NCBI GenBank assembly: GCA_017528045.1
Contig: JAFXPG010000005.1
Span: 77,834-141,833 of the forward strand
Origin: Alphaproteobacteria bacterium
GTDB lineage: Bacteria; Pseudomonadota; Alphaproteobacteria; Rs-D84
Length of the DNA: 64,000 nt
Direction: 5' to 3'
Part shown: piece after piece, positions 34,308 through 50,747 of the stretch
How positions within the stretch are numbered: the first letter of the stretch is position 1
Layout of the letters: each line of letters begins with the position of its first letter
Position numbers and translations under genes: made by a program
Notes under the pieces: generated by a model
Databases searched by the model: none
What the model saw: the letters and a program-made list of their open reading frames with translations, nothing else
What the model was told of the DNA's origin: nothing

Positions 34308-36842
34308 CTAATTTGTATCACTGTTTGAATTATTAATTGATACTTTATGATGTGGCACTTTTTCTGTTAGTGTTTTGGAATAATCATTTTTATCTGTTGT
34401 TTTAAAATTGCAAGTTATAGTCAAAGTGTTTTCATCAGTTGTGCTATCAACAGTTGGACAAACTTGACCATAAGATGAAAATACTATTTGTTTACACCAT
34501 GAATTAGGCTCTCTTCTGACTGTTAAATATTTTGTTTTAAAGAAATCTGAAAAACGATTATTGCAAGTTGGGTCGTCTCCTGAAGTATTTTCTGTTGATG
34601 AATATACACGTAATAAAGGTGCACATATTTGTTCAGAACCATTTTTACTGCGATATCCACCATTTTCCCAACAAGAACAAATGCCCCAAGATTGAATATC
34701 TACTTTTAAATTATAATTTGCAGGACACATATATTCATTATCTATAAATTGATACCAATAATTTAATGATGTTGGTTGGCTGTAATCTATATAAAATAAA
34801 CTGGCAGGAGATTTTGTGTTTATTGTACATAAATTATCAGAATTATATCCATATTGTTTTGCGTTTGTATATTCAACAAAAAAACCTTTTAATGTATCGC
34901 ACTGTGCAGATAATATGTTTATAATATTATAATAAATTTCTGTTGCGACACCAGATGGTCTTATTATTCTGTCTTCGTTTTCTTCTGTTGAATATTTGTT
35001 ATCAGCTGTTTTATCAAAACCACCAAACACTTTTTCTAACATATCTGATGTGTTGCATCCTTCTGTTGCAAAAACTTCTTTTGCACAAGGGGATACGATA
35101 TTTTGATTATCGTCATATAATGTAAACCAATCTAAAGCATAACCAGATTTAAATAAGCCACTGGATGGATTGTAAAGATTTTCATAACTTGTTCCGCCAA
35201 ATTTATCAAAACACTGTTTTGCAATTGCTCGACAAGCTGTTTCAGAATCTGTATAATCTTTATTAGCCAAATATTTTTGTATAACATTATCACCAAATAA
35301 ATTATTACATGATTCTATATAATCAGAACACATAGTTGTTGTTAAAGATATAGATGCAGGTTGTAATAGTATGCTGGAATCACCAGTTAAATTAGCTATT
35401 GCATTGTTAACAGATGTTTTTTGGTTTTCATAACACGCAGCAACTAAAGAAAAACAGCTGTCTTGAATTTCTTTTACTTTCTCTTGTTGAGCAATATATA
35501 TATCCAATAATGCCCTGTCCAAATATTGTTGCCATACAGTATCTGATTGTTCGCTGCATTTATCCAATGCATCTTTTGCAAATTTTTTTGTTTTGTTTTC
35601 AAAGAAATTGATGAAATCTCGATTATTAGATATTTTTGACAGTTTTAAATCTTTGATATTATCGGTATTTTTAAATGTTAACAGAGTTCCCAATTTATAA
35701 AAATCTGAAATACCTGTCAAAGGTGCACCGGTTGTTACGTCTATAAATTGACCATAATCAAGGCATTTGTGATATCTGGCTCCACATACTTCTTCACTTT
35801 GAATTGCTTGTTCTACGTTTACTAAACAAGTTGCTATATCATCAGAATTGCGATTTTGTCTGTTTTCTACTCTGGCTAAATCTAACATTGCACTACTTTG
35901 ATGTGTTGCGCCTTTTAATGTTTTTTGTTGTGTTTTTAAAGCGGTTTCGACAGTATTGCAATCTTGTTCAATTGCCATTAAATACGCATTGACAGCACGT
36001 TGTAAAGATGCATTATTACAATCTTCTGAAACAGCATTACGACATTTTGGATAAATTGCTTTGTATAAAGTAGATCCGTTGTAAGATGCGATAATTTGAC
36101 CAGAATCATCCATTCCAAATGAATTAGATAAATCCGTACCAATTGACACACTGTTTAAACTTTCGTATTTACCACCAACAGATGATTTTTCGCCATTTAT
36201 AGCATTCATAATTGCTTGTAACAATTGTTTAGAAGCCGATTTGTCTTCTGTTAAGGCATTTTCGCCTTCTGATGCTGTTTTCATGGCGTTTGCTTGTTCT
36301 TTTGTCATTCCAACGACATCTAAATCTTCGGAAAATTCTGTTAAACGTTCACTGACTTTTTGATATTTATCAGAAATTTCTTGATAGTTATAAATTTTGT
36401 CACTGCAAGAACAACGTCTGAATTTATCATTTTTTAATGTGCAAAATTGATCCATACATGTAAAAAATGCGGTTTTACATTGTTCATATATTTCGCCTGT
36501 TTTTGTTTCAACAGAAGATTCTTTTTGTTCTGTTGCACGCGCTATAACATTGTTTTTGTTTACAGTACGATTATTTACAGCGGTTCTTGTTGCAATATTT
36601 CTGGTGTTTATAGTTCTTGATACAGGAGAATCTTTTTTTGTTAATATTGTTGTTGGTTTTGCACTGCGTGCAGACACCGTTGTTTTTACAGCGTTTCTTG
36701 ATACAGTAGAACGAGATGTTTTGTTTGTGGTTTTTATTGGCGTGTTTTTATTGCGAATCACAGTGTTTTCGCCACGTACAGCAGCCCCTGCTTCAGAAAA
36801 GCAAAGTATAAATGACAAAACAAAAATCAGAATTTTCTTCAT
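34308..36842 (-). CDS. Large cysteine-rich secreted protein (844 aa, orphan)
   Basis: The signal peptide is MKKILIFVLSFILCFSEAGA. A basic T/R/N/K-rich low-complexity N-terminal region follows, and then a long region with many paired cysteines (for example CKTAFFTCMDQFCTLKNDKFRRCSCS). I recognise no family. Confidence 0.75.
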   Translation of the reverse strand: MKKILIFVLSFILCFSEAGAAVRGENTVIRNKNTPIKTTNKTSRSTVSRNAVKTTVSARSAKPTTILTKKDSPVSRTINTRNIATRTAVNNRTVNKNNVIARATEQKESSVETKTGEIYEQCKTAFFTCMDQFCTLKNDKFRRCSCSDKIYNYQEISDKYQKVSERLTEFSEDLDVVGMTKEQANAMKTASEGENALTEDKSASKQLLQAIMNAINGEKSSVGGKYESLNSVSIGTDLSNSFGMDDSGQIIASYNGSTLYKAIYPKCRNAVSEDCNNASLQRAVNAYLMAIEQDCNTVETALKTQQKTLKGATHQSSAMLDLARVENRQNRNSDDIATCLVNVEQAIQSEEVCGARYHKCLDYGQFIDVTTGAPLTGISDFYKLGTLLTFKNTDNIKDLKLSKISNNRDFINFFENKTKKFAKDALDKCSEQSDTVWQQYLDRALLDIYIAQQEKVKEIQDSCFSLVAACYENQKTSVNNAIANLTGDSSILLQPASISLTTTMCSDYIESCNNLFGDNVIQKYLANKDYTDSETACRAIAKQCFDKFGGTSYENLYNPSSGLFKSGYALDWFTLYDDNQNIVSPCAKEVFATEGCNTSDMLEKVFGGFDKTADNKYSTEENEDRIIRPSGVATEIYYNIINILSAQCDTLKGFFVEYTNAKQYGYNSDNLCTINTKSPASLFYIDYSQPTSLNYWYQFIDNEYMCPANYNLKVDIQSWGICSCWENGGYRSKNGSEQICAPLLRVYSSTENTSGDDPTCNNRFSDFFKTKYLTVRREPNSWCKQIVFSSYGQVCPTVDSTTDENTLTITCNFKTTDKNDYSKTLTEKVPHHKVSINNSNSDTN

Positions 36843-36979: not shown

Positions 36980-37067
36980 GGGCATATGGCGGAATTGGTA
37001 GACGCGCTAGTTTCAGGTACTAGTGGTAGTTAATACCTTGGAAGTTCGAGTCTTCTTGTGCCCACCA
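36980..37067 (+). tRNA. tRNA-Leu (anticodon CAG)
   Basis: Acceptor gggcata/tgtgccc, anticodon arm ctagt-ttCAGgt-actag, a long variable arm, T-loop ttcgagt, and CCA. Confidence 0.9.
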
Positions 37068-37087
37068 TATGTTTTGAAGAGTGAAAT

Positions 37088-37163
37088 GGGGTTGTAGCTC
37101 AGTTGGTAGAGCGCTGCGTTCGCAATGCAGAGGTCGTGAGTTCGAATCTCATCAGCTCCACCA
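37088..37163 (+). tRNA. tRNA-Ala (anticodon CGC)
   Basis: The acceptor stem contains the G3:U70 pair, the anticodon loop is ttCGCaa, the T-loop is ttcgaat, and CCA is encoded. Confidence 0.9.
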
Positions 37164-37218
37164 AAATTATTTTGTGGAATTGTTACAAAATAAGTGTTAT
37201 AGTTAAAGCGAAGTCCTT

Positions 37219-37305
37219 GGGGATATGGCGGAATGGTAGACGCTGAGGACTTAAAATCCTTTGATCATTGCGATCGTGTGGGTTCAAGTCCCACTATCCC
37301 CACCA
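37219..37305 (+). tRNA. tRNA-Leu (anticodon UAA)
   Basis: Acceptor ggggata/tatcccc, anticodon arm gagga-ctTAAaa-tcctt, a long variable arm, and CCA. Confidence 0.9.
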
Positions 37306-37312
37306 AACTTGA

Positions 37313-37340
37313 TGTCCGCGGTTTATGCGGATTTTTTATT
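37313..37340 (+). terminator. Intrinsic terminator after the tRNA cluster
   Basis: Stem tccgc/gcgga followed by T6. It overlaps the 3' end of the convergent 37336 gene. Confidence 0.75.
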
Positions 37341-38694
37341 TTTCGCGAATATTATTACAAATTTTTTGTAGAATTTTTGGTTGTAGAAAATCACGTGTTA
37401 CATCGTCCCAGTTTATACCTTCTTTGATTTCTTGTATACAACGTTGAACTTCTTCCCAAGTATAATATTTATTCCAATGGACACGTTCTAAACCATTTGA
37501 AATAATCAAAGGAGATTTATATATATAATCATATGCTAACTGTTTTAGTGGTGGAACATTGTTTACATCTAGTATTTTACAAACTAATTCAGGATAATAT
37601 TGAGATTTATGCCCTTTTTCATAATAGTGCATGTCTTTATTTACGTGTGTAAAATCAAAAATTCTTATAAAATCTCTGTTTAATAATTGGCGGATTTTTT
37701 CGTATTCTGGGCCCATGCTGTCGCGTTTTAATTTTAGACGGCGTAATAAACGTAATATTTTTTTTGTTTTTCTTTCTAAATCATACGGCAAACCATCTGT
37801 TATCTGTGGCCATAAAGTTGTATCAAAAAATTTGTCACCCATTTTATCGTATTCTTCCAACAGATATGTATCTATGTTGCACGCATCAAATGAATTAAAA
37901 TCTATAGAATCTAAAATCATAGCAAAACTTTGCCATTGTAAATAAATTATTTTGTTGGCAATATGTTCAGGGTTCTTTTCATAACTTCCTGCATCTATTA
38001 ATATTCCTTGTATTTTATTTTGTGTGTTATTATCTTTTGGATACATGAATTGACGGCCTGTAATAAAAGGACCAATAGGTGTTTTTGCTTTGTGTTTTTC
38101 GTCTATATATTTGGTTAAAATGTAAGCACTTGTTGAATTATTTACATCTACAGGTTTAGACATAAAAGGACGTGCAACACGACCATGTGAGTATGTTTTA
38201 TGAAGCGTAAAATAAATTTGTGGTTCAAATAAAGCACCATGTGTAAACGAATAGTTATCGTTTTTATTTCCATGAAAATCTTTAAATGTTTGTAATACAT
38301 ACAAATTTTCTGTCAGATTAAAGTCTATAAGAAAACAAAATTTGAAAGCTCCATCATCAATATATTGTACAGAAACGTTAGGAATTTTTAAAATTTTGCC
38401 CAGTTGTTTTTCAATTTGTTTATATTCACTAATGAAATTTATGCGATAGGGAGTTTTTGTATCATCAATTCTAGCTTTAGTGGTTATATTGTTTGCAAAT
38501 TCAGAAAGTATTTTACTTATTTTAATTGTTATTGTCTTTCGTTTGTTTTCAGGAATACGTGTAATTATTTCAGCAGGCAAAGTCCCAATATATTCTGGTA
38601 ATGTATCATTTTTTACCATATTAGTTATTTCATAAGGACCAATGAATTTCCTTTTTACCCTGTGTAAAAGATGTTTTGTTATTTTGTTGTTCAT
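37336..38694 (-). CDS. Hypothetical protein (452 aa, orphan, no signal peptide)
   Basis: It is a long intact ORF, but I recognise no family or motif and there is no clear SD sequence. Confidence 0.6.
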   Translation of the reverse strand: MNNKITKHLLHRVKRKFIGPYEITNMVKNDTLPEYIGTLPAEIITRIPENKRKTITIKISKILSEFANNITTKARIDDTKTPYRINFISEYKQIEKQLGKILKIPNVSVQYIDDGAFKFCFLIDFNLTENLYVLQTFKDFHGNKNDNYSFTHGALFEPQIYFTLHKTYSHGRVARPFMSKPVDVNNSTSAYILTKYIDEKHKAKTPIGPFITGRQFMYPKDNNTQNKIQGILIDAGSYEKNPEHIANKIIYLQWQSFAMILDSIDFNSFDACNIDTYLLEEYDKMGDKFFDTTLWPQITDGLPYDLERKTKKILRLLRRLKLKRDSMGPEYEKIRQLLNRDFIRIFDFTHVNKDMHYYEKGHKSQYYPELVCKILDVNNVPPLKQLAYDYIYKSPLIISNGLERVHWNKYYTWEEVQRCIQEIKEGINWDDVTRDFLQPKILQKICNNIREK

Positions 38695-38747: not shown

Positions 38748-38824
38748 GGATGTGTGGCTCAGTTGGTTAGAGCACTACGTTCACATCGTAGGGGTCGGCG
38801 GTTCGAGTCCGCCCACATCCACCA
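38748..38824 (+). tRNA. tRNA-Val (anticodon CAC)
   Basis: Acceptor ggatgtg/cacatcc, anticodon arm ctacg-ttCACat-cgtag, T-loop ttcgagt, and CCA. Confidence 0.9.
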
Positions 38825-38831
38825 AATATAT

Positions 38832-40778
38832 TTATCTTTGATATATTGTTTGCATTCTTGTTAAAATTTCTTCTGTCTTTGAAAAACTTGGTAATATTTG
38901 TTGCATCTTTTCTTTTTCAATCAAAGCTTCTTGAACTAATTTTAATAAATCTAATTGTCTAGATGCGTCTTTTTCCTTTGTAACAGCAATTAATTTTTCG
39001 TTAACACTGTTATTAATTATGTTTATAATTGATTGAATTTTTATTTCTGCAGCACGAATATCGGACATGTCGTTAATTTTTCCTATGTTTATCATTTGAG
39101 TTTCTTGTAAGTTTTCTTTATTTGCATCTGTTGAATTAACAGTTTTGTTTGTTGGTGCAATATTCATAGTATATTTAGTTTGTATTGTTTGCGAATTTGT
39201 TTTTTTATAAATTTTTTTTACAGTTTTTTCGGTTTCTGGTCGTTGTGTTTCTTGGGTATCTGTTGTTATATTTTCAGGTGTATTACCAGAACTGGTTGCC
39301 GTTTGATTTGAAACCTCTTTACTTGTTTTTGTTGTATAATATGCTAATAAAACATCTACATTGAAATATTCTTCTGTTTTAATTTTTTCAATTGTTATTT
39401 CTTCTGAATCATCGTTTAAGCTTTTTGCAGCACAATCAATACTTTTTGAATATTTTAAACTTTCTTTGGTTTTACCTGTAAAACAAAAATGCTCTTTATA
39501 AACACTTGTGCATACAAGAATTTTTTCTTTTGGCAAAAATGTCCAAACAATTCTTTTTCTGTCTTTAGAAACACTGTTTGATACGCTTTGAACTATGCAG
39601 TTGCCACCCTCTTTTTGTAAGTAGGCACAAGATGTTCTTGTGTTTTCTTCGGTATTTATTATTTGTAAAGGTGTAAATATAGGTGTTTCATTTATATCTG
39701 TGTTTACAGAAGATATAATTTCCAATACAGATTTTATTAAAAAATCATTTTTGTTACATAGGCTTTTAATTTTCTGCCACAATTTTTTTGGAATATACTT
39801 TTGTATGTTTATTGGAATTAAAGAAACGTCTTCTGTAGCAACCGGTTTTGTGTCTGCAGTTTTGTCTTCTTTTTGGTTTAAAAAAGTTTGTTTTTTTCTT
39901 TTGTTTTCAGCTTTTTTATCTTCTTTTGCTTGTAATTCAAATATTAATGTATCTAATAAATCTGCTACTTTATCTTTTCCTATACACACTACAGCACTGC
40001 CAGTATTAGTATTTTTTAATAATTGTTTATTATATTTAGACATTAATTTACGAATTTCGCGTTCTAATGTTGCATCAAGTATTTTGAAAGAAGTTATAAT
40101 AATATTTTGTTTTGCTTCTTTCATAATATCTTTTATATCATAAAAATTTTCTGTTTTTATTCTTAATAAATATTCAGGTTTTTCAACAGGCTGTTTTATA
40201 ATTTCTTGTTTTATTATGATTGATTTTGTTTTAACAGATTCTGATAAGTTTATACCTTTTTTATCCCCAATAATAATAACACCAGGGTATTGTTGTAATA
40301 AAAAGTTAGCTTCTGCCAATTTTTCTATATCGCTACTGATATTTGATAAAAGAGAATCTGCAACAATTATTTTTTTTACAGTATTAGGAATTCTGCCTTT
40401 AAGGAAAGATAAACTTGGAATAGAATGAGAACAGTCTATTTCTGTTAAACCTTTTGGGAAAATAAAACTTTCATGAAATATATCTGTTTTTTTATTTTGA
40501 AAATCACGCATTTGGGTATGAGATCGGCATATAAATTTACCTTCTATAATTTTTGGTAAAATAACATAATATCTTTGTTTTGAAATATCTAAACCGCCAA
40601 TAATGTGTACATTTGATAAATCGGTAGTTTTTGTTTGATCCGATAATATTACCATATCTGTTATGATAAGTGGGTTTTCTTCGTTAAATTCATCATAAGG
40701 CAGATTATAAATATCTACCTGTAATTCTTTATCCACAATTCTGGCATTATAAATATTTTTTCGTGGAATATATCCCAT
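38832..40778 (-). CDS. Hypothetical protein (648 aa, orphan, no signal peptide)
   Basis: It is a long intact ORF with an AAAGG RBS. The central region is K/E-rich and the C-terminus is coiled-coil-like. I recognise no family. Confidence 0.6.
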   Translation of the reverse strand: MGYIPRKNIYNARIVDKELQVDIYNLPYDEFNEENPLIITDMVILSDQTKTTDLSNVHIIGGLDISKQRYYVILPKIIEGKFICRSHTQMRDFQNKKTDIFHESFIFPKGLTEIDCSHSIPSLSFLKGRIPNTVKKIIVADSLLSNISSDIEKLAEANFLLQQYPGVIIIGDKKGINLSESVKTKSIIIKQEIIKQPVEKPEYLLRIKTENFYDIKDIMKEAKQNIIITSFKILDATLEREIRKLMSKYNKQLLKNTNTGSAVVCIGKDKVADLLDTLIFELQAKEDKKAENKRKKQTFLNQKEDKTADTKPVATEDVSLIPINIQKYIPKKLWQKIKSLCNKNDFLIKSVLEIISSVNTDINETPIFTPLQIINTEENTRTSCAYLQKEGGNCIVQSVSNSVSKDRKRIVWTFLPKEKILVCTSVYKEHFCFTGKTKESLKYSKSIDCAAKSLNDDSEEITIEKIKTEEYFNVDVLLAYYTTKTSKEVSNQTATSSGNTPENITTDTQETQRPETEKTVKKIYKKTNSQTIQTKYTMNIAPTNKTVNSTDANKENLQETQMINIGKINDMSDIRAAEIKIQSIINIINNSVNEKLIAVTKEKDASRQLDLLKLVQEALIEKEKMQQILPSFSKTEEILTRMQTIYQR

Positions 40779-40866: not shown

Positions 40867-41181
40867 TTATCTTAATCCTTTCTTTTTGCAACAAGCGCTG
40901 GCTGCAGATTTCCAATCTGAATAAGTATTTGCGGGATCCCTTAAATCACGCCATGGTTGCCAAGAATTACAATTGTTTTTATCTTTATTAGAACATTTTA
41001 CATATCTGCGCAAAGAACATGTTTCAGATGAGTTTTTACCAGTATCGGTTGTACATTTTACAATAACATTTTGATTTTTTGCATCATCCTTGCCAAATTC
41101 TTTGGTTGAAAGAACTTGATAAGCATCAGCGTTTAATACAACAGAAAAAACAGCCATTAAAATAAAAAATATTTTTTTCAT
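40867..41181 (-). CDS. Small cysteine-rich secreted protein (104 aa)
   Basis: It has the signal peptide MKKIFFILMAVFSVVLNADA and 8 cysteines in the mature part. It is the last gene of the minus-strand cluster. Confidence 0.65.
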   Translation of the reverse strand: MKKIFFILMAVFSVVLNADAYQVLSTKEFGKDDAKNQNVIVKCTTDTGKNSSETCSLRRYVKCSNKDKNNCNSWQPWRDLRDPANTYSDWKSAASACCKKKGLR

Positions 41182-41242
41182 CTTATTCCCCTGCTTTTAT
41201 ATACATATTATAAACAATTTTTCGTATCAATACAACAAGGTT

Positions 41243-43444
41243 TTATTCAGCTGCTGTTTGTTTCTGAGATGTGGAATTTGTATTTTGTTTCGCACCAGGT
41301 TCAGGACGTTTTTGAAATAATGTTTTTGGGTTTTGTTCTTTCAAACTTTCTTGTTGTTGTTCCCATTCTGTGATATTTGTATGTACTTGATTAAATTGTT
41401 CTGATGTTGACCAAGGAATATCGTTCATTATCAAATAAAATAAATCACCTTTTGTTTTATTTGGATCTGATTCATCCAAACGAATAATAGGACGAACAAT
41501 ATATATATCAACATTGCATTCTGCACCGTTTTTTGATTGAAATTCGTTTAAAGAATCTGAAAATTTTTCTGTAAAGTCTATAACTTGCAAATAAGCTGCA
41601 TCGTCATCTTGTGGTAAAGTTGAATTCCCTGTCCATCTTAAAAAAGTACCATAGCCTACTTCGTTATCTTCACCTTCTATATCATCGGCAGATAATAAAC
41701 AGAAAGGTTTAAATGCTATACCATTTGAATATTTTTCAGATGTTGTTGATGTTTGATCATAAAAATCCCCCAAAACATATAAAAATCCGGTCAAAGCGCC
41801 CATGTTTTGTTCAAATTTTACTAATTTTTCTCCAAACTTTAAAGATGTATGGAATAACCAATCTTTTGCTTTTGCAGAAAAAGTTCCCATACCTGCCCTT
41901 GCTACTTTGCTGGCTTTTGCAATTTTTGCAGCATTTTTTGCAGAATTAATAGCTTTATATGTTTTGTATGCTGCACCAATTTTTTTGAAAGGACGTGTTA
42001 TAACGTTTCCTGTTTGTGGACGCCCAAAAGCTTTCAGATCATCAAGATATTTAAGCATACTTTTAAGTTCACCTGCATTTTCAGTATATTGTTGAAGACC
42101 TTTCAATTCTTCTAATTCTTTTTCATATTTTTGGACATATGCTGCTTTATCAGCTTTTTTAGCTTCTTTTAACAACTTTTCTTTTTCTTTTATTTGTTTT
42201 GCAACATCATCCAACATACCAGAAGTTTGTTTTTCTAAAGTTGCAGCTTCTTTGCGTAGATTATTTATGGTCTTTTCCATATGGGATGGATCTGACATAT
42301 ATCTTCTGTCCAATTTAGGATCTATTTTTTTCGCTTCTGCAAATATATCATCTAATTTTTTCTGAAGTTCTTGTGATTTTACTAAATCTTTATTCTTTTT
42401 CGCTGTTTTATATTCTTTTGCGACTTTTTCATAATCTTTTGCACGGTCAAGATTTTTTGCAAGACGGTCTGCTTTTGAAGTTGTTTTTGCTAATTTATCA
42501 GCAATCTTTGCGTACTTTTTTACATTAGCAAACTTTTCCAAAGCCTTCATATTTTTTATCAGGTTTTTCATTGTTTTGACGGCTCGAATACTGCGAATAC
42601 TGCTTGTAACAGCCTGACTGCCACCCAAAGTTGCGACAGTTAAAACAGCATCCAAAGTTATCTCTGCCCACATAACCCATCTAAGATCAATATCTCCTGC
42701 AACGTAATAATCGTTTGAATCCTCTTCCAGGTCAACAACTTCACGAACAACTTGGTTTATTGTATCTTTATCATTAGCCCAAGCGCTTCTGCTGGTACAC
42801 CAATAACCTTTTGGATAAACTTTGTCGATATTGTCATTTATCCATTTCACTGAAACAATATTATTTTTATCTTTACCAACAAAATCGTTCAAAGAACCAT
42901 GTTGAACAACCATAACCGCATACCAAGCAGGATCTGTATTAATATATTTAGCGGGATCATTTGGATCCATTAATTTTGGACTGGCATCATCTGTAGGTAA
43001 ACTTGGTTTTTCAGCTAATTGTATTTTTTGTTTTATAACTTTTGGTTGTGTTGTATAATTTACTGTTACGGATTGCCCCCATGGAAAAGTATATTTTACC
43101 GGACTGAATATAACAGTATCAGTGTCAGATATGTTTGCAACTTCTGGGCATTTTTGTATTTGCTTTAACACATCTGCATCTAGTATTACTCTTCTGGCCC
43201 ATATTTGCAAAGAATCTTCTTCTATAGTGTCTTCATATTCGTTTTCTTGTATTATTTTTTCTGCACCTTTTTCCAAGGCTTCAATGAATATTTTGCTGGA
43301 ACAATCTGTGGGATGAATATTCTGATGTTTTGTCATCATTTCATCAACAGTTTGATAAGAAGAGTTTTTCACCGGTGCATCAAAATCATCCGCAAAAGCA
43401 GGAAAGATAAATAAAAAAGATATAATAAATAATTTTATAAACAT
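41243..43444 (-). CDS. Secreted/membrane protein (733 aa) with a central K-rich helical region between two hydrophobic segments
   Basis: The signal peptide is MFIKLFIISFLFIFPAFA. The two hydrophobic segments are ITLDAVLTVATLGGSQAV and MGALTGFLYVLGDF. A K/A/E-rich helical stretch of roughly 270 aa lies between them. Confidence 0.7.
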   Translation of the reverse strand: MFIKLFIISFLFIFPAFADDFDAPVKNSSYQTVDEMMTKHQNIHPTDCSSKIFIEALEKGAEKIIQENEYEDTIEEDSLQIWARRVILDADVLKQIQKCPEVANISDTDTVIFSPVKYTFPWGQSVTVNYTTQPKVIKQKIQLAEKPSLPTDDASPKLMDPNDPAKYINTDPAWYAVMVVQHGSLNDFVGKDKNNIVSVKWINDNIDKVYPKGYWCTSRSAWANDKDTINQVVREVVDLEEDSNDYYVAGDIDLRWVMWAEITLDAVLTVATLGGSQAVTSSIRSIRAVKTMKNLIKNMKALEKFANVKKYAKIADKLAKTTSKADRLAKNLDRAKDYEKVAKEYKTAKKNKDLVKSQELQKKLDDIFAEAKKIDPKLDRRYMSDPSHMEKTINNLRKEAATLEKQTSGMLDDVAKQIKEKEKLLKEAKKADKAAYVQKYEKELEELKGLQQYTENAGELKSMLKYLDDLKAFGRPQTGNVITRPFKKIGAAYKTYKAINSAKNAAKIAKASKVARAGMGTFSAKAKDWLFHTSLKFGEKLVKFEQNMGALTGFLYVLGDFYDQTSTTSEKYSNGIAFKPFCLLSADDIEGEDNEVGYGTFLRWTGNSTLPQDDDAAYLQVIDFTEKFSDSLNEFQSKNGAECNVDIYIVRPIIRLDESDPNKTKGDLFYLIMNDIPWSTSEQFNQVHTNITEWEQQQESLKEQNPKTLFQKRPEPGAKQNTNSTSQKQTAAE

Positions 43445-43456
43445 CGTAATACGTAT

Positions 43457-44566
43457 CTATTTTTTATAGTTTATATTTTTTATTGTTTTACCTTCTGATA
43501 TAATAACTAATCCATTTGGTTTATTTGTTTCTGATATTTTTTGAGGTAATGGTGTATATTTTGGCCAGACTCCCCTAAAAATGTCATACCAAAAACCGTG
43601 GTCATTATAATTCCAGAAATATCTTTCTCCTTGTTTTTTGTATGGTATTGCAACTGCGTAAAATACCAAATCTTCACACCAATCATCTTTGTCTAGTTTT
43701 GAAACTGCTTTTACAAATTCCTCAAATTTTTCCAAACCACTAAATTGACTGAATACAACAATAGATTCATCATTATCGGTATCTCTCATTAATAGTAATC
43801 CCGGGAAAAGTCTTGAATCTGAATCTCCAAAATCAAGAAATGTTTTATAAACATTAGCATAAGCTGCTCTTATGTGGTCGAATGCAGCACCTGCAGCATA
43901 ATGAATAACATTTGGATTTTGTATTCCGTTAGTAATTTTATGATCAGAACAATTTGGGTGAAAAAAATTACCAGATTGATGATTATGAGGCAAAAAATCC
44001 CCAGGATTTAAGTCTGGATTTTTTGTTGCTACTATAGCTATATTGTGTGGCATTCTGGAAACAACATCACTGGGTTTAAAATATAGGCTTACTAATTCTT
44101 CATCTATGGCGACCTCCAGTTTTACGCATCTTGGACCACTTGAGTTATTTTTATCACATGGCACACCTTTTTCTTTATTTTGGTCTTCTTCCCATTGTAA
44201 TCCTTCTTGCATTAGTGCATTAAATTCGGTTTCAGAACCACAAAGATCTGTCATAAGTATACCTAATAAATAATAAATCGGAAGTCTGGGGTTTCCATTG
44301 TCATCTGAAATAGTTTCATTGTTCATAACTTTTTGACCTTTAGCATTTGTTTTATACAAAGGTGTTTTTAAATCTCTTAGTTCAGCTAGATATTTTGCTA
44401 AATAACCATCATATTCTGAATTTTCGAATAAGTCTTCTCTTACTTTTGCTCTAGTAGAATTTGAATTCATAGCTTTATCTAAACAGGTCTGCCATGCAGA
44501 ATTTGATGCCTCTGCGTTGATACAAAAACATAATATTGAAATAATAAATATTAATTTTTTCATCAA
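43457..44566 (-). CDS. Secreted protein (369 aa), paralog of the 44603 gene
   Basis: It has a signal peptide. It shares blocks with its neighbour, for example NFFHPNCSDH vs HFFSDGCSDW and RLFPGLLLMRDTDNDESIVVFSQF vs RAFPGLVLMDKTWSTTESIVAFQNF. Confidence 0.7.
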   Translation of the reverse strand: MMKKLIFIISILCFCINAEASNSAWQTCLDKAMNSNSTRAKVREDLFENSEYDGYLAKYLAELRDLKTPLYKTNAKGQKVMNNETISDDNGNPRLPIYYLLGILMTDLCGSETEFNALMQEGLQWEEDQNKEKGVPCDKNNSSGPRCVKLEVAIDEELVSLYFKPSDVVSRMPHNIAIVATKNPDLNPGDFLPHNHQSGNFFHPNCSDHKITNGIQNPNVIHYAAGAAFDHIRAAYANVYKTFLDFGDSDSRLFPGLLLMRDTDNDESIVVFSQFSGLEKFEEFVKAVSKLDKDDWCEDLVFYAVAIPYKKQGERYFWNYNDHGFWYDIFRGVWPKYTPLPQKISETNKPNGLVIISEGKTIKNINYKK

Positions 44567-44602
44567 AGCCCCTTATGTTTCGTTTGCTGTCTTGAAAATC
44601 TC

Positions 44603-45673
44603 TTAGTCTATTTTGTATGGATTAGATACAATCATAACTTGATCTATTTTTTCTATATCTCGTGGTATCAAAGCAGCAATACCTGCTCCTGTTAATAATA
44701 CACCAGAAGCAATCCATCCCCAAACCGGAACAACTGCAGTCCCTGCTGCTAAACCAGCTAATGTTCCAGAAATTGTGCCTGCTGCAACAAGAGACACGTA
44801 TGTAGTATAAACTAAACCTGCACCTGCTGTACTTAATAATCCAACTGCCCATCCACTGGTTCCATTGTCAAATCTGGTTTTTTTTACGTCCAAAGCCACT
44901 AAATAGGCAGCTAATTCATCATCAGAACAGGCAGAATTTTGTAAATTTTTTGCAAAAGTGTCTATACTGCTTTCTGCTAATTCAAAATTTTGAAAAGCAA
45001 CAATAGATTCTGTTGTGGACCATGTTTTATCCATTAACACCAAACCAGGAAAAGCACGCATGTTATCTTTTACTGCAAAATCAAGAAAAAATTCATTTGA
45101 AGATCCACTATGTCTAGCATCTATAAAGGCTGCCTGTCCAGCTCTATTTACAGCAGCACTATCTTTTAAATTATCCCATATAGACCAATCAGAACATCCA
45201 TCGCTGAAAAAATGTCCGTCCTGTGGGACACTTGTTTTTTCCAGTATTCTGCCTGGTTGAAGATTTCTATTGTTTATAACCAATATACCTGTTCTTATAT
45301 GGGACATATATTTCAACACTTTATGTAAAGGAAAATTAACATGAAATTCTTCATCACCAAGAGATAATTCTATTCTGGATGAATTCGGCATTTCCAGAAT
45401 TTCTGCAATTTGACCAGGACATAAAGCTTCTATATTTAAAGCTATTAATGAAAACAACTCTTCTTTATGTTTGATTACGTGCTCTGGTAACAATACAGTG
45501 TTTTTAGCATCTAATTCTTTAAAAATACGATCGTCATTGTTTATATTAAATAATTTGTTGTGCCAATTTTCTTTGTCTGCTTGAATTATATTTAAACAGT
45601 CCTGTAACGAACCCAACGCAAATGCATTGTAACCTGAAAAAATAACAACAAACAAAAATAATAGTTGTTTCAT
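44603..45673 (-). CDS. Secreted protein (356 aa), paralog of the 43457 gene, with a C-terminal glycine-zipper membrane region
   Basis: It has a signal peptide. The C-terminus GWAVGLLSTAGAGLVYTTYVSLVAAGTISGTLAGLAAGTAVVPVWGWIASGVLLTGAGIAALI is absent from the paralog. Confidence 0.7.
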   Translation of the reverse strand: MKQLLFLFVVIFSGYNAFALGSLQDCLNIIQADKENWHNKLFNINNDDRIFKELDAKNTVLLPEHVIKHKEELFSLIALNIEALCPGQIAEILEMPNSSRIELSLGDEEFHVNFPLHKVLKYMSHIRTGILVINNRNLQPGRILEKTSVPQDGHFFSDGCSDWSIWDNLKDSAAVNRAGQAAFIDARHSGSSNEFFLDFAVKDNMRAFPGLVLMDKTWSTTESIVAFQNFELAESSIDTFAKNLQNSACSDDELAAYLVALDVKKTRFDNGTSGWAVGLLSTAGAGLVYTTYVSLVAAGTISGTLAGLAAGTAVVPVWGWIASGVLLTGAGIAALIPRDIEKIDQVMIVSNPYKID

Positions 45674-45685
45674 GTTTTTTCCTTT

Positions 45686-47488
45686 TTATATTGACATATT
45701 TACCGAACAACTTAATGTTAATGTTATATTTCCGTTATAAACAGAAACGTTCAAAGGCGATGATACAGGATTTCCTGATTCTTGCCATGAACATTTATAA
45801 CTATCACAAGCTGCAGTACTAGTAGAGGGGTTTTTTGTCTTCGTTATATCATCATTTGTTGGCAAATTTACAGATCGTGTACTTGAATCAAAACTTGTTA
45901 TTTTGTTAAAACTAGATTTTATCTCACATTTACAGCCTTGTGGACAACCATTGGCATTATCTGTCTTATATGTAATAGTATAATTAGTTCCGCCGCTGCC
46001 ACCGCCACCTTGTTGTGTGTTTTTCCATTTTGCTTTTAATGTTTTATCACCGGTTGTGCCCGCAGGAATTTTTGTTATACAATTGTTGCCTTCCTGCCAG
46101 CAATCAAAATCTTTGTTTGGACAATTACTTGCATCTTTTAATTGTGTGTCAGCATCTGTCGTATAAGATGTAGGACTGTCATGTGTAGCACCAGAACAAT
46201 TTACATCATATGTTATTTTATATCCGTTTTTACGCCATTTTGCATAAAACTTTTTATCCCCTGTGTCTGTTTTGGTTATTTCTTTGACTAAATCACCGCC
46301 ACCATTTGCCGCTGTGTACCAGCCTTCAAATGCATGTAATGGTCGGGTAATTTTTCCATTTGTTGTTTCTGTTGGTAATTTAACATTTGTTGCAGTATTG
46401 ATTTTATAACTGTAAGGCACTTGTGTTGGGTCTTGAAACCTTGCATCAGATCCAATATCATATTCTATCTTGAAATCTTTGCAATTCCATTTTGCAAACA
46501 GTTTTAAATTTTTATTCATACCTTTTTCAATGGTTTCTATTTTGTTTGTATATTCTTTTTCTGTAAACCAACCCATGAATACATCTGAATTTGCATCTTT
46601 CTTTTCACAATTTTCAAATGTTGGATCTTCTAATTTTATAGGTGTTTGTCTTGGTTTATATATCAAAGGGTTGTTTGGATTGTTAACACCACCGTCTAAA
46701 TGATACGTTATAGTATATTTTTTGCAAATATCTGATCCAGAATGATCTTCACACCATTCGTCTTCGTCTTTAAATTGCGGTAAATCGTATGCGTGTTTAT
46801 CTTTGAATGGTTTATAGCCTTCTGTTTCATTGGCAACACGTTCTTGGAAACTGATGTCTTTATAAGTCTTAGGAAATGCTGTGCTTGATAAATGTTCAGT
46901 ACCAACGCTATTTTGTTCTTGTAATTCTTTTAATTCTTGTGCGCGTTCTGCGATTTCTTGTTTCCATTTAGGTGTATCTGCTTTAAAAGGATTTTTTTCA
47001 AAAACCATGTTTGTATTATCGTTGTATTGTGCAGGTTCTGTAGCCTGAGGAAATGCAACGACTCTGTTTTGTGGAATTGTGTTTCTATATTTTGTAACAT
47101 AAGAATCATATAAATAATCTATATATCCCGAACACGCATACAAATAATTATGTCCGGGCAAATTAGATAACTGAATTAAAATCACAGGCTTAATATCTTT
47201 TAAAGATGTACTTTTACAATTGTTTCTGGCCGAACATTGAACGTTAATTAAAGAATTAACAATGTTTTCACATTCACCCGCGTTTAAATCTGCACCTTGG
47301 ACATAAACAGGTTGTGGTAACCGTTGATTATAAGGAGAATTTGGTGTCCAAAAAGGGTTAGAAGAATATTTTTGAACATTTTGTATTTGACCATAATCAG
47401 AAAAAATAGCAGATGCAGCCATCGCGCTGACCATATAAATACAGCTGAAAACAGCGGTTGATAAAGATATTAGGTGTTTTTTTCTCAT
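45686..47488 (-). CDS. Secreted protein (600 aa) with four Listeria-Bacteroides (Flg_new) repeats
   Basis: It has a signal peptide. Repeats start with YTITYHLDGG, FKIEYD, YKITYD and YTITYKTD. Repeats end with FMGWF...LFAKW, FEGWY...FYAKW and FDCWQ...LKAKW. A GGGGSGG linker is also present. Confidence 0.75.
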   Translation of the reverse strand: MRKKHLISLSTAVFSCIYMVSAMAASAIFSDYGQIQNVQKYSSNPFWTPNSPYNQRLPQPVYVQGADLNAGECENIVNSLINVQCSARNNCKSTSLKDIKPVILIQLSNLPGHNYLYACSGYIDYLYDSYVTKYRNTIPQNRVVAFPQATEPAQYNDNTNMVFEKNPFKADTPKWKQEIAERAQELKELQEQNSVGTEHLSSTAFPKTYKDISFQERVANETEGYKPFKDKHAYDLPQFKDEDEWCEDHSGSDICKKYTITYHLDGGVNNPNNPLIYKPRQTPIKLEDPTFENCEKKDANSDVFMGWFTEKEYTNKIETIEKGMNKNLKLFAKWNCKDFKIEYDIGSDARFQDPTQVPYSYKINTATNVKLPTETTNGKITRPLHAFEGWYTAANGGGDLVKEITKTDTGDKKFYAKWRKNGYKITYDVNCSGATHDSPTSYTTDADTQLKDASNCPNKDFDCWQEGNNCITKIPAGTTGDKTLKAKWKNTQQGGGGSGGTNYTITYKTDNANGCPQGCKCEIKSSFNKITSFDSSTRSVNLPTNDDITKTKNPSTSTAACDSYKCSWQESGNPVSSPLNVSVYNGNITLTLSCSVNMSI

Positions 47489-47502
47489 TTCCTTGTTTCT
47501 GA

Positions 47503-47964
47503 TTATAACAAAAATTGAATTATAATTAAAGACAAAAATCCACCTGTTAAAAAGAATGGTGCAAAAGGTACATATTTTTGACTGTTCTTTTTAGCCCATA
47601 TATAAGACAATATGCAGGCAATAATCATGGCTATTGATAAACCTATGGTGCCAAGCCATATTCCGCCTGCCCCTAATAATTTTATATCCCCCATTCCAAT
47701 TGGTGGATATTTTTGTTTTTTTGTAAATCTTTCAAATATAAAACCAACAATTAAACCTAAACAATATCCCATGGAACCACCTATGACGGCATCTGCTGTT
47801 GTAATTGGCCATGGAAAAAAAGTGGTTATTAATAATCCTGCAAATAAAAATGGAAACAGATATACGTCTGGGATAATTCTGTGTTCAAAATCGTTTGTCG
47901 ACATTCTTACTGCACAAAAAATGGCACCAATCAGTATAAAAGAAAAAAATATATAAGAAATCAT
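47503..47964 (-). CDS. A24-family prepilin peptidase, TadV/CpaA type (no methyltransferase domain)
   Basis: It is polytopic and has both aspartyl motif contexts, RIIPDVYLFP and GMGDIKLLGAGG. I prefer the ATG at 47964. Confidence 0.75.
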   Translation of the reverse strand: MISYIFFSFILIGAIFCAVRMSTNDFEHRIIPDVYLFPFLFAGLLITTFFPWPITTADAVIGGSMGYCLGLIVGFIFERFTKKQKYPPIGMGDIKLLGAGGIWLGTIGLSIAMIIACILSYIWAKKNSQKYVPFAPFFLTGGFLSLIIIQFLL

Positions 47965-48036
47965 GTTTTCTCTCTTGCCTTTCGATTCGTTTTTATGATA
48001 CAATTATATCAGATATAAACACAAGGACTTTTTATT

Positions 48037-48699
48037 ATGAGTAAAGGTTGGGACAGCGGAATGCTGAAAAAATTAAAATCTCTGGTTGGCAAAGGTTTGT
48101 CTACCGCGGAAATGGGTAAAAAATTAGGTATGTCTAAAAATGCAGTTGTTGGTAAATTAAACCGTTTGGGTTGGAATGCAAAAGCAACAGAAACGGCTGA
48201 TAAAAAATCAACGAAACCTGTGAAAAAGGCAACTAAGACAGAAACAACTGTAAAAAAAGCGTCTGTTAAAAAGACAGTTGCAAAAAAGCCAGTAGAAAAA
48301 GTTGCTAAAAAAGAAAGTAAAACTGTCAAGAAAACAGTTGAAAAATCTGTAAAAAAAACATCTGATAAAAAAGAAATAAAGACAGTAAAAAAACCGGTTG
48401 TAGATAAAAAAGCAGAAACTAAAACAACTAAAAAAGTTGAAAAAGTTGTTGAAAAAGAACAACCTGTTATCAAGACTGCTTCCAAAAAAACAAAAAAAGA
48501 TTTGGCTTTGCATGAATTATTAATACAACATGCTTTGCAAATGGCAAATTTAAAACCAAATCAATGTCGTTGGCCTATTGGGGATCCTGATTCTGATAAT
48601 TTTCATTTCTGTGGTGAAACAGTATTTACAGGAAAACCTTATTGTTATGAACATTGTCGCCAAGCTTATCAATTTACACCAGCTAAAAAGAATAAATAA
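48037..48699 (+). CDS. gcrA: GcrA cell-cycle regulator with a lysine-rich linker expansion
   Basis: The N-terminal HTH-like region reads LKKLKSLVGKGLSTAEMGKKLGMSKNAVVGKLNRLGW. The C-terminal region reads QCRWPIGDPDSDNFHFCGE...PYCYEHCRQAY. The central region consists of KKxxKK repeats. Confidence 0.85.
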   Translation: MSKGWDSGMLKKLKSLVGKGLSTAEMGKKLGMSKNAVVGKLNRLGWNAKATETADKKSTKPVKKATKTETTVKKASVKKTVAKKPVEKVAKKESKTVKKTVEKSVKKTSDKKEIKTVKKPVVDKKAETKTTKKVEKVVEKEQPVIKTASKKTKKDLALHELLIQHALQMANLKPNQCRWPIGDPDSDNFHFCGETVFTGKPYCYEHCRQAYQFTPAKKNK

Positions 48700-48710: not shown

Positions 48711-50747
48711 ATGTCAGGAGAGAGATTTAATAATAAAAATAATGAATATGGAACATTGAATATGCGTCCGTATGTTATTTTTGGTAATGATATTGCTGCC
48801 TTTTATGATAAAAACGATGATTTGATATTCATTTTGGATAATACTGTAAATTCTCGTAAACCAAATGTTTTATTGGTTATTAATCCAGATGGTGACAAAA
48901 AATGGGATGAAATTTTATCAAATATATACAAAGTAGATTTGGAAAATATTCGCCCAAAGCAAGATAATAAATATCAAAAATTGGATATAGAATATTCTGG
49001 ATTGAACGTATATGACAATTTGATAAAAGCTTATGATAACGGAGAAGATTTGTCTGAGTATTTAACTCAGTTGGATGTTTTACGCGATTCTGCTGTTCGT
49101 CACAGTGCTATGTCCAGATTAAATATGGCAAATGAGATTATTGCAAAAACAAATAACACTATTGTAAAAACCAAAGAAACAATAGATGAATTACAAACAC
49201 GTTTAAAAACATTGCGTTCTAAACTGGCCAGTCAGAAGAAAGAAATTGGTAAAATTTCTACAAAACAATCTGCTGCAAAAATTTTGCGTACAGAATCTCA
49301 AATAGAAGCAACAAATGAAAAATTAAAACGCGCTAAAAAACGTTTGGAATCTGCACAACGTCGTTTGGAAGCAGCTACTAATGATGCAGAATTAGCCAGC
49401 GCTTTGTTAAATTTACCTGAACCCAAATATACAGTATCAACTTCAAAAGCTGTTATGAACAGTCCAAAATACGAAATTCAAGCAACAGAACCAGATGATG
49501 ATTTTGAAGAAGAAATACCTGAATATAAAGATGATTTTCAAGAAGATATTGCAGAAGAAACAGATAGTTCTGTAAAGCCTTTATTTGATACAGACCCAAA
49601 TATTTTAAATGAAGATATTGCTTTTAAACCAATATCTTTTGATGTTTCTGAACCTGATATTCAACAATCTACACCAGTCGTTGAATTTGAAGAAGAAAAA
49701 CAATCACAACCAGAAGATATAGAAGAATTTATAGCACCTGTTCCTTTTGAACAAGAACAATCTGGGTCTGAAGAAAAAACAGAAGATATGCCTCCTGTCA
49801 TTGATACCCAGGCATTATTTAATTTAAAAACAGAAGATGTGTCTGATAGCAATACTGATTCTTTGACAGAAGAAAAAGCAAAATCTGTATTAGAATCTAT
49901 GAAACCTGTTTCAGAATATGAAGAAAATGTAATTACACCTGTTAGTGAACCAATAGATGTAAGACCTGTTGAACAATTTTCTTATGAACCAGAAACATCA
50001 CATGTTCAAGAAAATGTTATAGTACCAGAGGTACCAGTTGTACATCCTGTTGAAAATAATTATAATATTCCAGAAACAAATATTACCGAAACACCAGAAA
50101 ATAGTACTAAATCTAAATTTGCATATTATTTCTTGTTGATACTATTAATAGTATTATCTGTGTTTACTTTGTGGTTATATCAAAAAAGTATATCTGACAG
50201 AAGCCCAATGTTAACCAAGAAAACATCGGAAACAATGGTTACATCAGAAAAAACAGTTGTTGAATCAGATACTGCTTTGCCAGATGTTGTTGAGGAAGTT
50301 GTCTTTTTAGATGAAGAACCTGAAACTATTGTCGAAGATACACCAACAACACAACCGACTGTTGAAAAAGTTGAAACAGAACAGACAACAGATGTCGTTG
50401 AAAAAGAAGAAGAACCGGTAGAAGATGCTCAAGATGCAGATGTTGTAACCGAAGAAGAAACCATTGTTGAAACAGAGAAAGCTCCAGAAGAAGTTTTTAT
50501 TGAAGAAGACATTGTATCGGAAAATTCTGAACTTATAGATAGTGAACCCATAGAAGATACGGTTGAAGAAGAAGTTGTTGTTGATAAACCTGAATATGAT
50601 GCTGGGTCTAAACATGAAGAAATGTTCGTAATAGAAGATGAAAATGTTGAAGAAATGACTTCCGAAGATGAAGATTATTTTGAAGAAGATCCTTTCTATG
50701 ATGCAGAGGAAGCAGAATATCAAGCAGAACAAGAAAGTTTAGAATAA
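48711..50747 (+). CDS. Highly acidic single-pass membrane protein (678 aa, orphan)
   Basis: It lies 11 nt after gcrA. It has an N-terminal globular region, a coiled coil, D/E-rich disordered regions, and one TM helix (FAYYFLLILLIVLSVFTLWLY). The C-terminal tail is very acidic. Confidence 0.7.
   Translation: MSGERFNNKNNEYGTLNMRPYVIFGNDIAAFYDKNDDLIFILDNTVNSRKPNVLLVINPDGDKKWDEILSNIYKVDLENIRPKQDNKYQKLDIEYSGLNVYDNLIKAYDNGEDLSEYLTQLDVLRDSAVRHSAMSRLNMANEIIAKTNNTIVKTKETIDELQTRLKTLRSKLASQKKEIGKISTKQSAAKILRTESQIEATNEKLKRAKKRLESAQRRLEAATNDAELASALLNLPEPKYTVSTSKAVMNSPKYEIQATEPDDDFEEEIPEYKDDFQEDIAEETDSSVKPLFDTDPNILNEDIAFKPISFDVSEPDIQQSTPVVEFEEEKQSQPEDIEEFIAPVPFEQEQSGSEEKTEDMPPVIDTQALFNLKTEDVSDSNTDSLTEEKAKSVLESMKPVSEYEENVITPVSEPIDVRPVEQFSYEPETSHVQENVIVPEVPVVHPVENNYNIPETNITETPENSTKSKFAYYFLLILLIVLSVFTLWLYQKSISDRSPMLTKKTSETMVTSEKTVVESDTALPDVVEEVVFLDEEPETIVEDTPTTQPTVEKVETEQTTDVVEKEEEPVEDAQDADVVTEEETIVETEKAPEEVFIEEDIVSENSELIDSEPIEDTVEEEVVVDKPEYDAGSKHEEMFVIEDENVEEMTSEDEDYFEEDPFYDAEEAEYQAEQESLE

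Follow-up and report, generated by a model that had tools for sequence, protein, structure and literature searches.

Prepilin peptidases of family A24 are seen as components dedicated to type IV filament machines. They require a Gly or another small residue at position -1 of the cleavage site, and their genes normally lie inside or beside the pilus loci that they serve. To our knowledge, no function other than that of a class III signal peptidase has been described for A24 enzymes. The archaeal enzyme PibD matures class III signal proteins that are not pilins, the sugar-binding proteins of the Sulfolobus bindosome. Rhombosortase with GlyGly-CTERM and exosortase with PEP-CTERM are sorting systems that pair a dedicated membrane protease with its substrates. 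This article addresses a short A24 peptidase gene, and the genes linked to it, in a 64-kb stretch of contig JAFXPG010000005.1 (the window), which represents about 7% of the ~0.9-Mb genome of an alphaproteobacterium belonging to Candidatus Enterousia in the order Rs-D84. The peptidase heads a run of six genes, and this run belongs to a real and conserved envelope module, in which the role of the peptidase is one that we infer.

Genomes of Candidatus Enterousia (order Rs-D84) are 0.75-1.0 Mb in size, without flagella, a tricarboxylic acid cycle or a respiratory chain, and a partner-dependent lifestyle has been suggested for these bacteria (PMC12306168). The 733 amino acid (aa) protein of the run has at least 220 relatives in the protein database at 40-50% identity, all from uncultured gut or rumen Alphaproteobacteria. 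A scan with one genome per species found relatives in 217 species, labelled as Candidatus Enterousia or as Alphaproteobacteria metagenome-assembled genomes (MAGs), with ruminants, horses, birds and humans as hosts. Conservation was studied by comparing 80 species loci with the window using BLAST and hidden Markov models (HMMs). Upstream synteny was counted in the 66 loci with at least 4.5 kb of DNA 5' of the 733 gene, and the presence of the 104-aa gene in the 63 loci with enough DNA on the 3' side.

The gene block next to gcrA

The block consists of the following genes and elements.

47503..47964, minus strand: A24 peptidase, 153 aa from the ATG, five hydrophobic segments
45686..47488, minus strand: 600-aa protein, predicted exported, made of 600N and a variable C-terminal part
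46754..47488, minus strand: 600N, the signal peptide and conserved N-terminal ~245 aa of the 600-aa protein
45686..46753, minus strand: C-terminal extension of the 600-aa protein, with Flg_new (Listeria-Bacteroides) repeats
44603..45673, minus strand: 356-aa protein, predicted exported, of the accessory "356 family"
43457..44566, minus strand: 369-aa protein, TTG start, predicted exported paralogue of the 356-aa protein
41243..43444, minus strand: 733-aa protein, predicted exported
40867..41181, minus strand: 104-aa protein, small, predicted exported
47965..48036, no strand: spacer between gcrA and the A24 gene, 72-73 nt, intergenic
48037..48699, plus strand: gcrA, cell-cycle regulator (Pfam GcrA, E 4e-30), divergent from A24
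48711..50747, plus strand: 678-aa protein, with an N-terminal domain and coiled coil, one transmembrane helix (~470-490) and an acidic tail

The six minus-strand genes run from 47964 down to 40867, and their gaps in the list of open reading frames (ORFs), 14, 12, 36, 12 and 61 nt, are exactly those given by the initial annotation, the earlier reading of this DNA by sequence inspection. It had proposed looking for this gene order in related genomes, where the order is kept in 66 of 66 species loci: gcrA and then the 678-aa gene lead away on one side, and A24, 600N, an optional 356-like gene, 733 and 104 follow one another on the other. In each of the 66, A24 and 600N lie 5' of 733 on the same strand with gcrA divergent. 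The divergent pairing of gcrA with A24 holds in all 66 Enterousia-type loci and extends to the outgroups L085-L091, the 678-aa gene adjoins gcrA in 63/66 loci and in all GcrA-linked outgroups, and the 104-aa gene comes next after 733 wherever it could be counted (63/63). Spacing is regular as well, with a median of ~22 nt from A24 to 600N (70 loci), ~0-40 nt or the length of one 356-like gene from 600N to 733, and ~60-80 nt from 733 to 104. By gene order, then, the conserved unit is gcrA with the 678-aa gene, divergent from A24, 600N, 733 and 104, and across the loci compared this module is chromosomally fixed and restricted to Candidatus Enterousia (Rs-D84) and its relatives. One MAG (CAMORN01; L006 and L014) has two diverged copies of the whole region, probably from two strains binned together.

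The Rs-D84 neighbourhood is collinear as a whole, from S1, Adk, CorA and AcpS to LpxB and LpxA, and synteny within Rs-D84 alone is therefore weak evidence. The more distant lineages are as follows.

L085 and L088: GC content 44-47%, A24 48-53% identical to that of the window; full cluster retained
L087 (a "Rickettsiales" MAG): GC 52%, A24 38% identical; 678-like gene and gcrA divergent from A24, with a 733 homologue among glycosyltransferases
L089/L090: GC 33%, A24 38% identical; 678-like gene and gcrA divergent from A24, with a convergent gene for a 669-aa lipoprotein containing a 600N domain
L091: GC 40%; 678-like gene and gcrA divergent from A24, with a convergent gene for a 648-aa 600N-733 fusion
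P0394/P0400: A24 more distant; adjoining RNase J, without pilus genes
P0408: A24 still more distant; in a canonical T2SSE/T2SSF locus

The 733 homologue of L087 is full-length (E 4e-139) and is encoded 3 kb from A24 on the opposite strand. The 669-aa protein of L089/L090 bears an LVGC lipobox and matches 600N with E 5e-27, and the L091 fusion matches 600N (E 1e-41) followed by a segment of the 733 family (E 6e-31). The left flank of L089-L091 is Dus-RodZ-HisRS-RF1, genes that stand 26-40 kb from gcrA in the window, and the other flank of L089 and L091 carries a U32 or M23 peptidase, unlike the window. Since both flanks have changed and the strand has flipped in these outgroups, the block of 678-like gene, gcrA and A24 with 600N/733 has survived rearrangement. 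Two kinds of gene fusion, 600N with a 356-like domain in eight loci (L028, L031, L042, L051, L060, L065, L070 and L080) and 600N with 733 in L091, speak for joint action of 600N, 356 and 733 and for a module tied to the gcrA/A24 locus. Further out, the P0408 locus (E 1.6e-13) has five small genes beside T2SSE/T2SSF. In L092 and L095 (P0400 and P0394), an apparently orphan short A24 gene lies directly 3' of RNase J and is followed by a gene for a Gly-zipper outer-membrane-type protein, with flanks that contain no pilus genes.

The spacer shared by gcrA and A24 holds a TATAAT, an inverted repeat TGATA-N6-TATCA, the block CGAATCGAAAGGCAAG / CGA(A/T)TCGAAA(G/C)GCAAGG, and then the A24 ribosome-binding site. 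A GANTC at 47984-47988 lies ~20 nt 5' of the A24 start, and the spacer DNA is conserved, with GANTC at a fixed position, in all of the ~66 species loci examined. Epigenetic control by CcrM and GcrA through GANTC was considered and dropped, as the frequency of the site in the whole window equals expectation (145 observed against 144.5 expected), so that no genome-wide signal speaks for it. The conserved GANTC may be no more than an element of a conserved leader.

By depth of conservation, the deepest conserved neighbour of the peptidase is gcrA together with the 678-aa membrane protein. The transmembrane motif of the latter, from 60 sequences, reads [KR]-P-[TSG]-[FL]-x-YY-x-[LM]-L-xx-LI-x-LS-x-FTLW-x-YQK, and the helix (region ~465-495) is almost invariant in 60 species, with flanks that are variable and of low complexity. 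Such an invariant helix suggests a specific partner within the membrane, possibly the divergently encoded A24 peptidase.

The peptidase and the exported families

The first gene had been taken for a small A24 aspartyl peptidase with both Asp contexts, and this holds. It matches Pfam Peptidase_A24 (PF01478) with E 3.1e-14 and 53.7 bits (cut-off 26.5) over profile positions 4-102 of 104, and carries the catalytic motifs RIIPD (Asp33) and PIGMGDIKL (Asp93). Both Asp motifs and a PFAPFF motif are at least 90% conserved in 72 species, and the A24 motifs are retained in the outgroups P0378, P0384 and P0390. An alternative TTG start at 48003 would give 166 aa; the homologues begin at the ATG. The best 120 homologues form a tight clade, at least 72% identical, and an exhaustive profile search gave 15 cluster representatives at E ≤ 1e-30, 69 at E ≤ 1e-10 and 2215 at E ≤ 1e-3. 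By these searches the peptidase is a member of family A24, and of a small separate subfamily within it, short and, as predicted from its motifs, catalytically intact. The species orthologues have a median identity to the window proteins of 54% for A24 (up to 84%), 57% for GcrA, 59% for LpxB and 38% for 733. A24 is thus about as well conserved as GcrA and LpxB, a sign of strong purifying selection in a reduced genome.

Its assignment as TadV/CpaA-type matches the architecture but finds no backing in the sequence. The architecture is indeed short: the 153 aa start at the first membrane segment, the N-terminal DiS_P_DiS or methyltransferase domain is absent, and no second Pfam domain was found, longer relatives included. 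The type assignment, on the other side, rests on size alone, as A24 has no NCBIfam match at E ≤ 0.1, and its best annotated plasmid relatives (~27-35% identity, E ~1e-7) are generic "A24 family", GspO-context or PppA enzymes. Several database "A24" proteins of ~300 aa (P0361, P0363 and P0365) are over-extended ORFs, in which the N-terminal half is an antisense translation of gcrA, and the same spurious antisense-gcrA ORF occurs in the window at 48009-48485 on the minus strand.

The five downstream products had been read as Sec-exported proteins without a recognisable family, apart from Flg_new repeats in one, and both statements withstood the analysis. In a hydropathy scan each shows one hydrophobic segment at the N-terminus, with an A-x-A-like site after it, and in sequence all five have the basic N-region, hydrophobic core and small-x-small site expected of substrates of Sec and signal peptidase I. 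Members of the 104, 600N and 733 families differ in the hydrophobic core of the signal but share the Ala at -1 and the start of the mature protein, which is the signature of signal peptidase I. A Gly at -1 followed by a hydrophobic helix is found in none of the exported cluster proteins. The possibility that these signal peptides are prepilin leaders was thus ruled out, since the cores vary, A-x-A is conserved and no Gly precedes the hydrophobic stretch. Invariant Cys occur in every exported family, which fits an oxidising, extracytoplasmic location. A small hairpin overlaps the stop codon of the 104-aa gene, and plus-strand tRNA genes (38748-38824 and 36980-37305) part this run from the later minus-strand 648-, 452- and 844-aa genes. 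For these two reasons the transcript probably ends after the 104-aa gene.

Of the families, 600N is defined by the N-terminal part of the 600-aa protein, with four invariant Cys. Its AlphaFold2 model has a predicted local distance difference test score (pLDDT) of 75, with a confident three-helix bundle at residues 70-135 and no match in Foldseek (PDB) or in PDB sequence-profile searches. Members of the 600 family are 168-744 aa long, with a C-terminal extension of 0 to ~500 aa. The Flg_new repeats of the window protein (PF09479, E 2.9e-17; TIGR02543, E 6.9e-13) occur in only one of 72 orthologues, that of this genome, and do not define the family. The 356- and 369-aa proteins are paralogues (32% identity, E 2e-15 by BLASTP); a hydropathy scan gives the former two C-terminal hydrophobic segments, which the latter lacks. 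Of ~71 loci, ~34 have a member of the 356 family, which either stands as its own gene or is joined to 600N, and the 356-aa protein matches nothing in Pfam, NCBIfam or the PDB. A weak HMM hint of a shared domain was dropped, because the profile-profile comparisons of 600N with 356 and of 733 with 356 align signal peptides only.

The 733-aa protein has N- and C-terminal alpha/beta parts, with four invariant Cys, flanking a helical bundle of ~270 aa, and a conserved RPQTGN motif. Its AlphaFold2 model, built from 98 sequences, has pLDDT 75 and a predicted template-modelling score of 0.61; its confidence is low in the best-conserved segments (239-275 and 545-602). Foldseek searches of this model against the PDB and a viral library, which used the whole model and are dominated by its helical bundle, returned coiled-coil noise only. 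Against the PDB, the 733 and 600N models found nothing better than E 0.09, with template-modelling scores of ~0.1. An exact-sequence look-up of the 733-aa protein gave no record. We did not adopt 733 as a double-pass membrane protein, as its two internal hydrophobic stretches lie below the hydropathy threshold. The 104 family has six invariant Cys, and every member ends in Gly-Leu-Arg. With 56-81% identity across species it is as conserved as housekeeping proteins; its cleavage site A|YQ is conserved and the hydrophobic core of its signal variable. The 104-aa protein has no PDB match, and an NCBIfam hit to EexN (18.7 bits against a cut-off of 33) was discarded, as it covers mostly the signal peptide.

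For the 356-, 369-, 733- and 104-aa proteins, nothing above noise turned up in Pfam or NCBIfam at E ≤ 0.1. PDB searches with single sequences or family profiles of A24, 733, 600N, 104 and 356 gave coiled-coil or chance matches only, and when 72 proteins of the 600 family and 86 of the 733, 844, 356, 104 and 678 families were scanned with Pfam, no Pfam family was matched by more than two members. On these searches 600N, 733, 104 and 356/369 appear to be four undescribed protein families. The count of five novel proteins in the initial annotation is accordingly right in that none can be assigned; the universal core is smaller, comprising 600N, 733 and 104, with 356/369 present in about half of the species.

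What the peptidase may serve

The lack of Tad/Cpa genes had been noticed from the start. Among the ORFs scanned in the 64-kb window there is no T2SSE ATPase, T2SSF platform, secretin or pilin gene, nor any Flp pilin ORF with the G/XXXXEY motif. The ±10 kb around A24 in ~90 loci are likewise free of Tad, type IV pilus and type II secretion genes, and the called genes of L001, L003, L085-L091 and L095 include no T2SSE, T2SSF or secretin. A regular-expression scan of 93 sequences (1.56 Mb of related loci) gave three scattered chance matches to the Flp pilin motif, none of them conserved, and no conserved type IV pilin ORF; neither in these loci nor in the window was there a candidate substrate with a class III signal.

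The explanation that we prefer, tentatively and at somewhat less than an even chance, is a lineage-restricted envelope module that is functionally tied to the orphan A24 peptidase. The genes from A24 to 104 would be co-transcribed from a conserved promoter region shared with gcrA. Because of the invariant Cys and the signal-peptide features, we infer that all products but the peptidase leave the cytoplasm through Sec, lose their signals to signal peptidase I (or, in one lineage, become lipidated) and form disulfide bonds. The 600N, 356 and 733 proteins may act as one periplasmic or surface complex, in which 356 would provide the anchor in the membrane and 733 a long helical stalk, while the exposed part that diversifies would be the variable C-terminus of the 600 family. 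The peptidase would be tied to this module by something other than the removal of N-terminal signals from its proteins, and most likely would mature another membrane protein that the module needs. The structure would probably serve as an envelope or cell-contact structure in bacteria that are thought to be partner-dependent. The earlier suggestion of a dedicated peptidase coupled to a set of novel envelope proteins therefore keeps its conserved linkage, with a smaller universal set and without support for processing. Nothing indicates that the peptidase processes the downstream exported proteins: their sites are of the signal peptidase I type, with one lipobox and no Gly at -1.

Several points weigh against this explanation. 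No cluster protein bears a class III (prepilin) signal, so that no substrate has been identified, and the searches for pilus genes covered the window and the locus flanks. Co-transcription, export, disulfides and complex formation are all deduced, and AlphaFold models cover only two families, 733 and 600N, both at moderate confidence. The A24 gene of L087 stands alone, with the 733 gene 3 kb off on the other strand, and the 104 family is absent from the flanks of L087 and L089-L091. Part of the synteny may be inertia, given that the AcpS, CorA and LpxB surroundings are collinear in Rs-D84.

The main rival holds that the peptidase serves an unlinked type IV filament system, be it Tad/Flp, a type IV pilus, type II secretion or a competence pseudopilus, and that its position reflects inherited gene order. 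We consider this rather unlikely, though it is the strongest of the alternatives. It agrees with the established role of A24 enzymes as class III signal peptidases, with the ordinary signal peptides of the cluster proteins, with the collinearity of the surrounding region, and with the T2SSE/T2SSF locus of P0408, the next-most-distant relative; and the window shows only a small fraction of the genome in which such a system could lie. Its difficulty is that prepilin peptidase genes usually sit with their pilus genes, whereas neither the window nor the surroundings of A24 in the related loci yielded a gene for a pilin, an ATPase or a platform protein. The linkage to 600N and 733, moreover, outlasts flank rearrangement and strand inversion, down to 38% A24 identity. 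In the genome comparison of Rs-D84, type IV pili are reported for a different lineage only (PMC12306168).

A bolder scenario is that a pilus-less lineage with a genome below 1 Mb has repurposed A24 to mature or assemble a new apparatus of 600N, 733 and 104, with or without 356, from the promoter shared with gcrA and through a non-canonical substrate such as the 678 helix. We regard it as doubtful, and a shade more so than service to a distant filament system. If these genomes truly lack filament machines, an A24 peptidase under strong purifying selection, and constantly linked to gcrA and to unassigned exported proteins, would point to a new use of the protease family, and if the repurposing is true, it would give the first demonstrated case of a bacterial A24 peptidase acting apart from type IV filament systems.

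The peptidase may instead have been co-opted for the cleavage of a membrane protein that is not a pilin and whose gene lies next to its own, with the 678 helix or an internal site of 733 as candidates; this we find improbable. The 678 helix is preceded by [KR]-P-[T/S/G], in a topology like that of a prepilin with a 470-aa "leader", it is near-invariant in 60 sequences while its flanks are free to vary, and the pairing of the 678-like gene and gcrA with A24 is the deepest conserved adjacency. The residue before the helix, however, is mostly Thr (Gly in 9/60), and there is no Glu at +5. In 733, Gly549, F557, G559, D560 and Y562 are found in at least 90% of members and D563 is invariant. The Gly549 is followed by a short hydrophobic stretch, and the low confidence of this region is what one would expect if it needs a complex or a membrane in order to fold. 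That stretch is only ~10-13 residues long and below the transmembrane hydropathy threshold, and the case as a whole is drawn from sequence.

The remaining idea, a highly divergent Tad-like pilus with unrecognisable pilin, ATPase and secretin, has in its favour an A24 gene placed first and followed by several small or membrane-anchored exported proteins, but is already unlikely from the sequence data and in our view very nearly dismissed, for a P-loop ATPase is missing, the downstream products are all exported and show no nucleotide-binding motifs or T2SSE/T2SSF matches, no pilin-type N-terminal hydrophobic helix follows a Gly, and the 733 and 600N models show neither a secretin-like fold nor a beta-rich C-terminal domain.

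The linked proteins are conserved in more than 200 species of abundant, uncultured Alphaproteobacteria of the animal gut. As a preferred reading, the module tied to the peptidase offers a concrete candidate for attachment to, or exchange with, partner organisms. Even with a peptidase that is unrelated to it, four apparently new protein families and their fusions are defined, together with a gcrA-linked gene block.

Adjacent genes and comparison with known systems

Beyond the 3' end of the run lie the following features.

38832-40778, minus strand: 648-aa gene, without a signal peptide, poorly conserved between species
38748-38824, plus strand: tRNA-Val
37336-38694, minus strand: 452-aa gene, without a signal peptide, poorly conserved between species
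36980-37305, plus strand: tRNA-Leu, tRNA-Ala and tRNA-Leu, which with tRNA-Val bracket the 452- and 648-aa genes
34308..36842, minus strand: 844-aa protein, predicted exported, 31 Cys, outside the operon

The 452/648-aa stretch is, by comparison between species, a variable part inside an otherwise collinear region. The 844-aa protein contains the motif CK..F.CMDQFC.LKND..RCSC. In 46 loci its gene separates the cluster from lpxB, a neighbourhood conserved in Rs-D84 only; the L001 and L003 proteins are 58-59% identical to it. The protein is absent from L087 and L089 and has no Pfam or NCBIfam match. A contig labelled Muribaculaceae (L047, CAYIZJ01) bears an Enterousia 733-104-844-LpxB block and is probably mis-binned. 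The 337-aa ORF at 22310-23323 (minus strand) weakly resembles the autotransporter beta-domain (E 3.8e-6, 27.3 bits, cut-off 26), a hint of a small protein of type V secretion. Housekeeping genes make up the other large ORFs of the window, with products such as UvrA, transketolase, HisRS, RF1, LpxB, S1, ThyA, trigger factor and ArgRS.

Among the described systems, the peptidase resembles TadV, CpaA and FppA in its PF01478 domain, in a length of ~150 aa that holds the peptidase core only, in the two catalytic Asp including GxGD, and in having no N-terminal methyltransferase domain. It differs in that flp, tadA/cpaF, tadB/C, rcpA/cpaC and tadE/F are missing from the window and from related loci, in the lack of an NCBIfam assignment, and in its position, divergent from gcrA and linked to exported families of unknown kind. 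By its gene content, the cluster lacks every other defining feature of the Tad system that can be tested locally. With PilD, GspO and PppA the enzyme shares the catalytic core, and its best annotated plasmid relatives are of that kind (~30% identity), one of them being the A24 gene that ends a Yersinia gspE-M operon. Unlike those enzymes, it has no N-terminal domain and no pseudopilin, ATPase or platform neighbours.

PibD is a precedent for an A24 peptidase that matures large envelope proteins outside of filaments. Its substrates carry [KR]-[GAS] and a hydrophobic helix, whereas the Enterousia proteins do not. The sorting systems are comparable by analogy only. Their protease family differs and the cluster proteins share no C-terminal sorting motif, although the gene of a polytopic protease again lies by genes of exported proteins, the 104 family has its invariant C-terminal GLR and 356 a C-terminal hydrophobic hairpin. 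Set beside all of these, what is new here is the context of an A24 peptidase, conserved in the genome and probably functional as well, with four seemingly undescribed families alongside.

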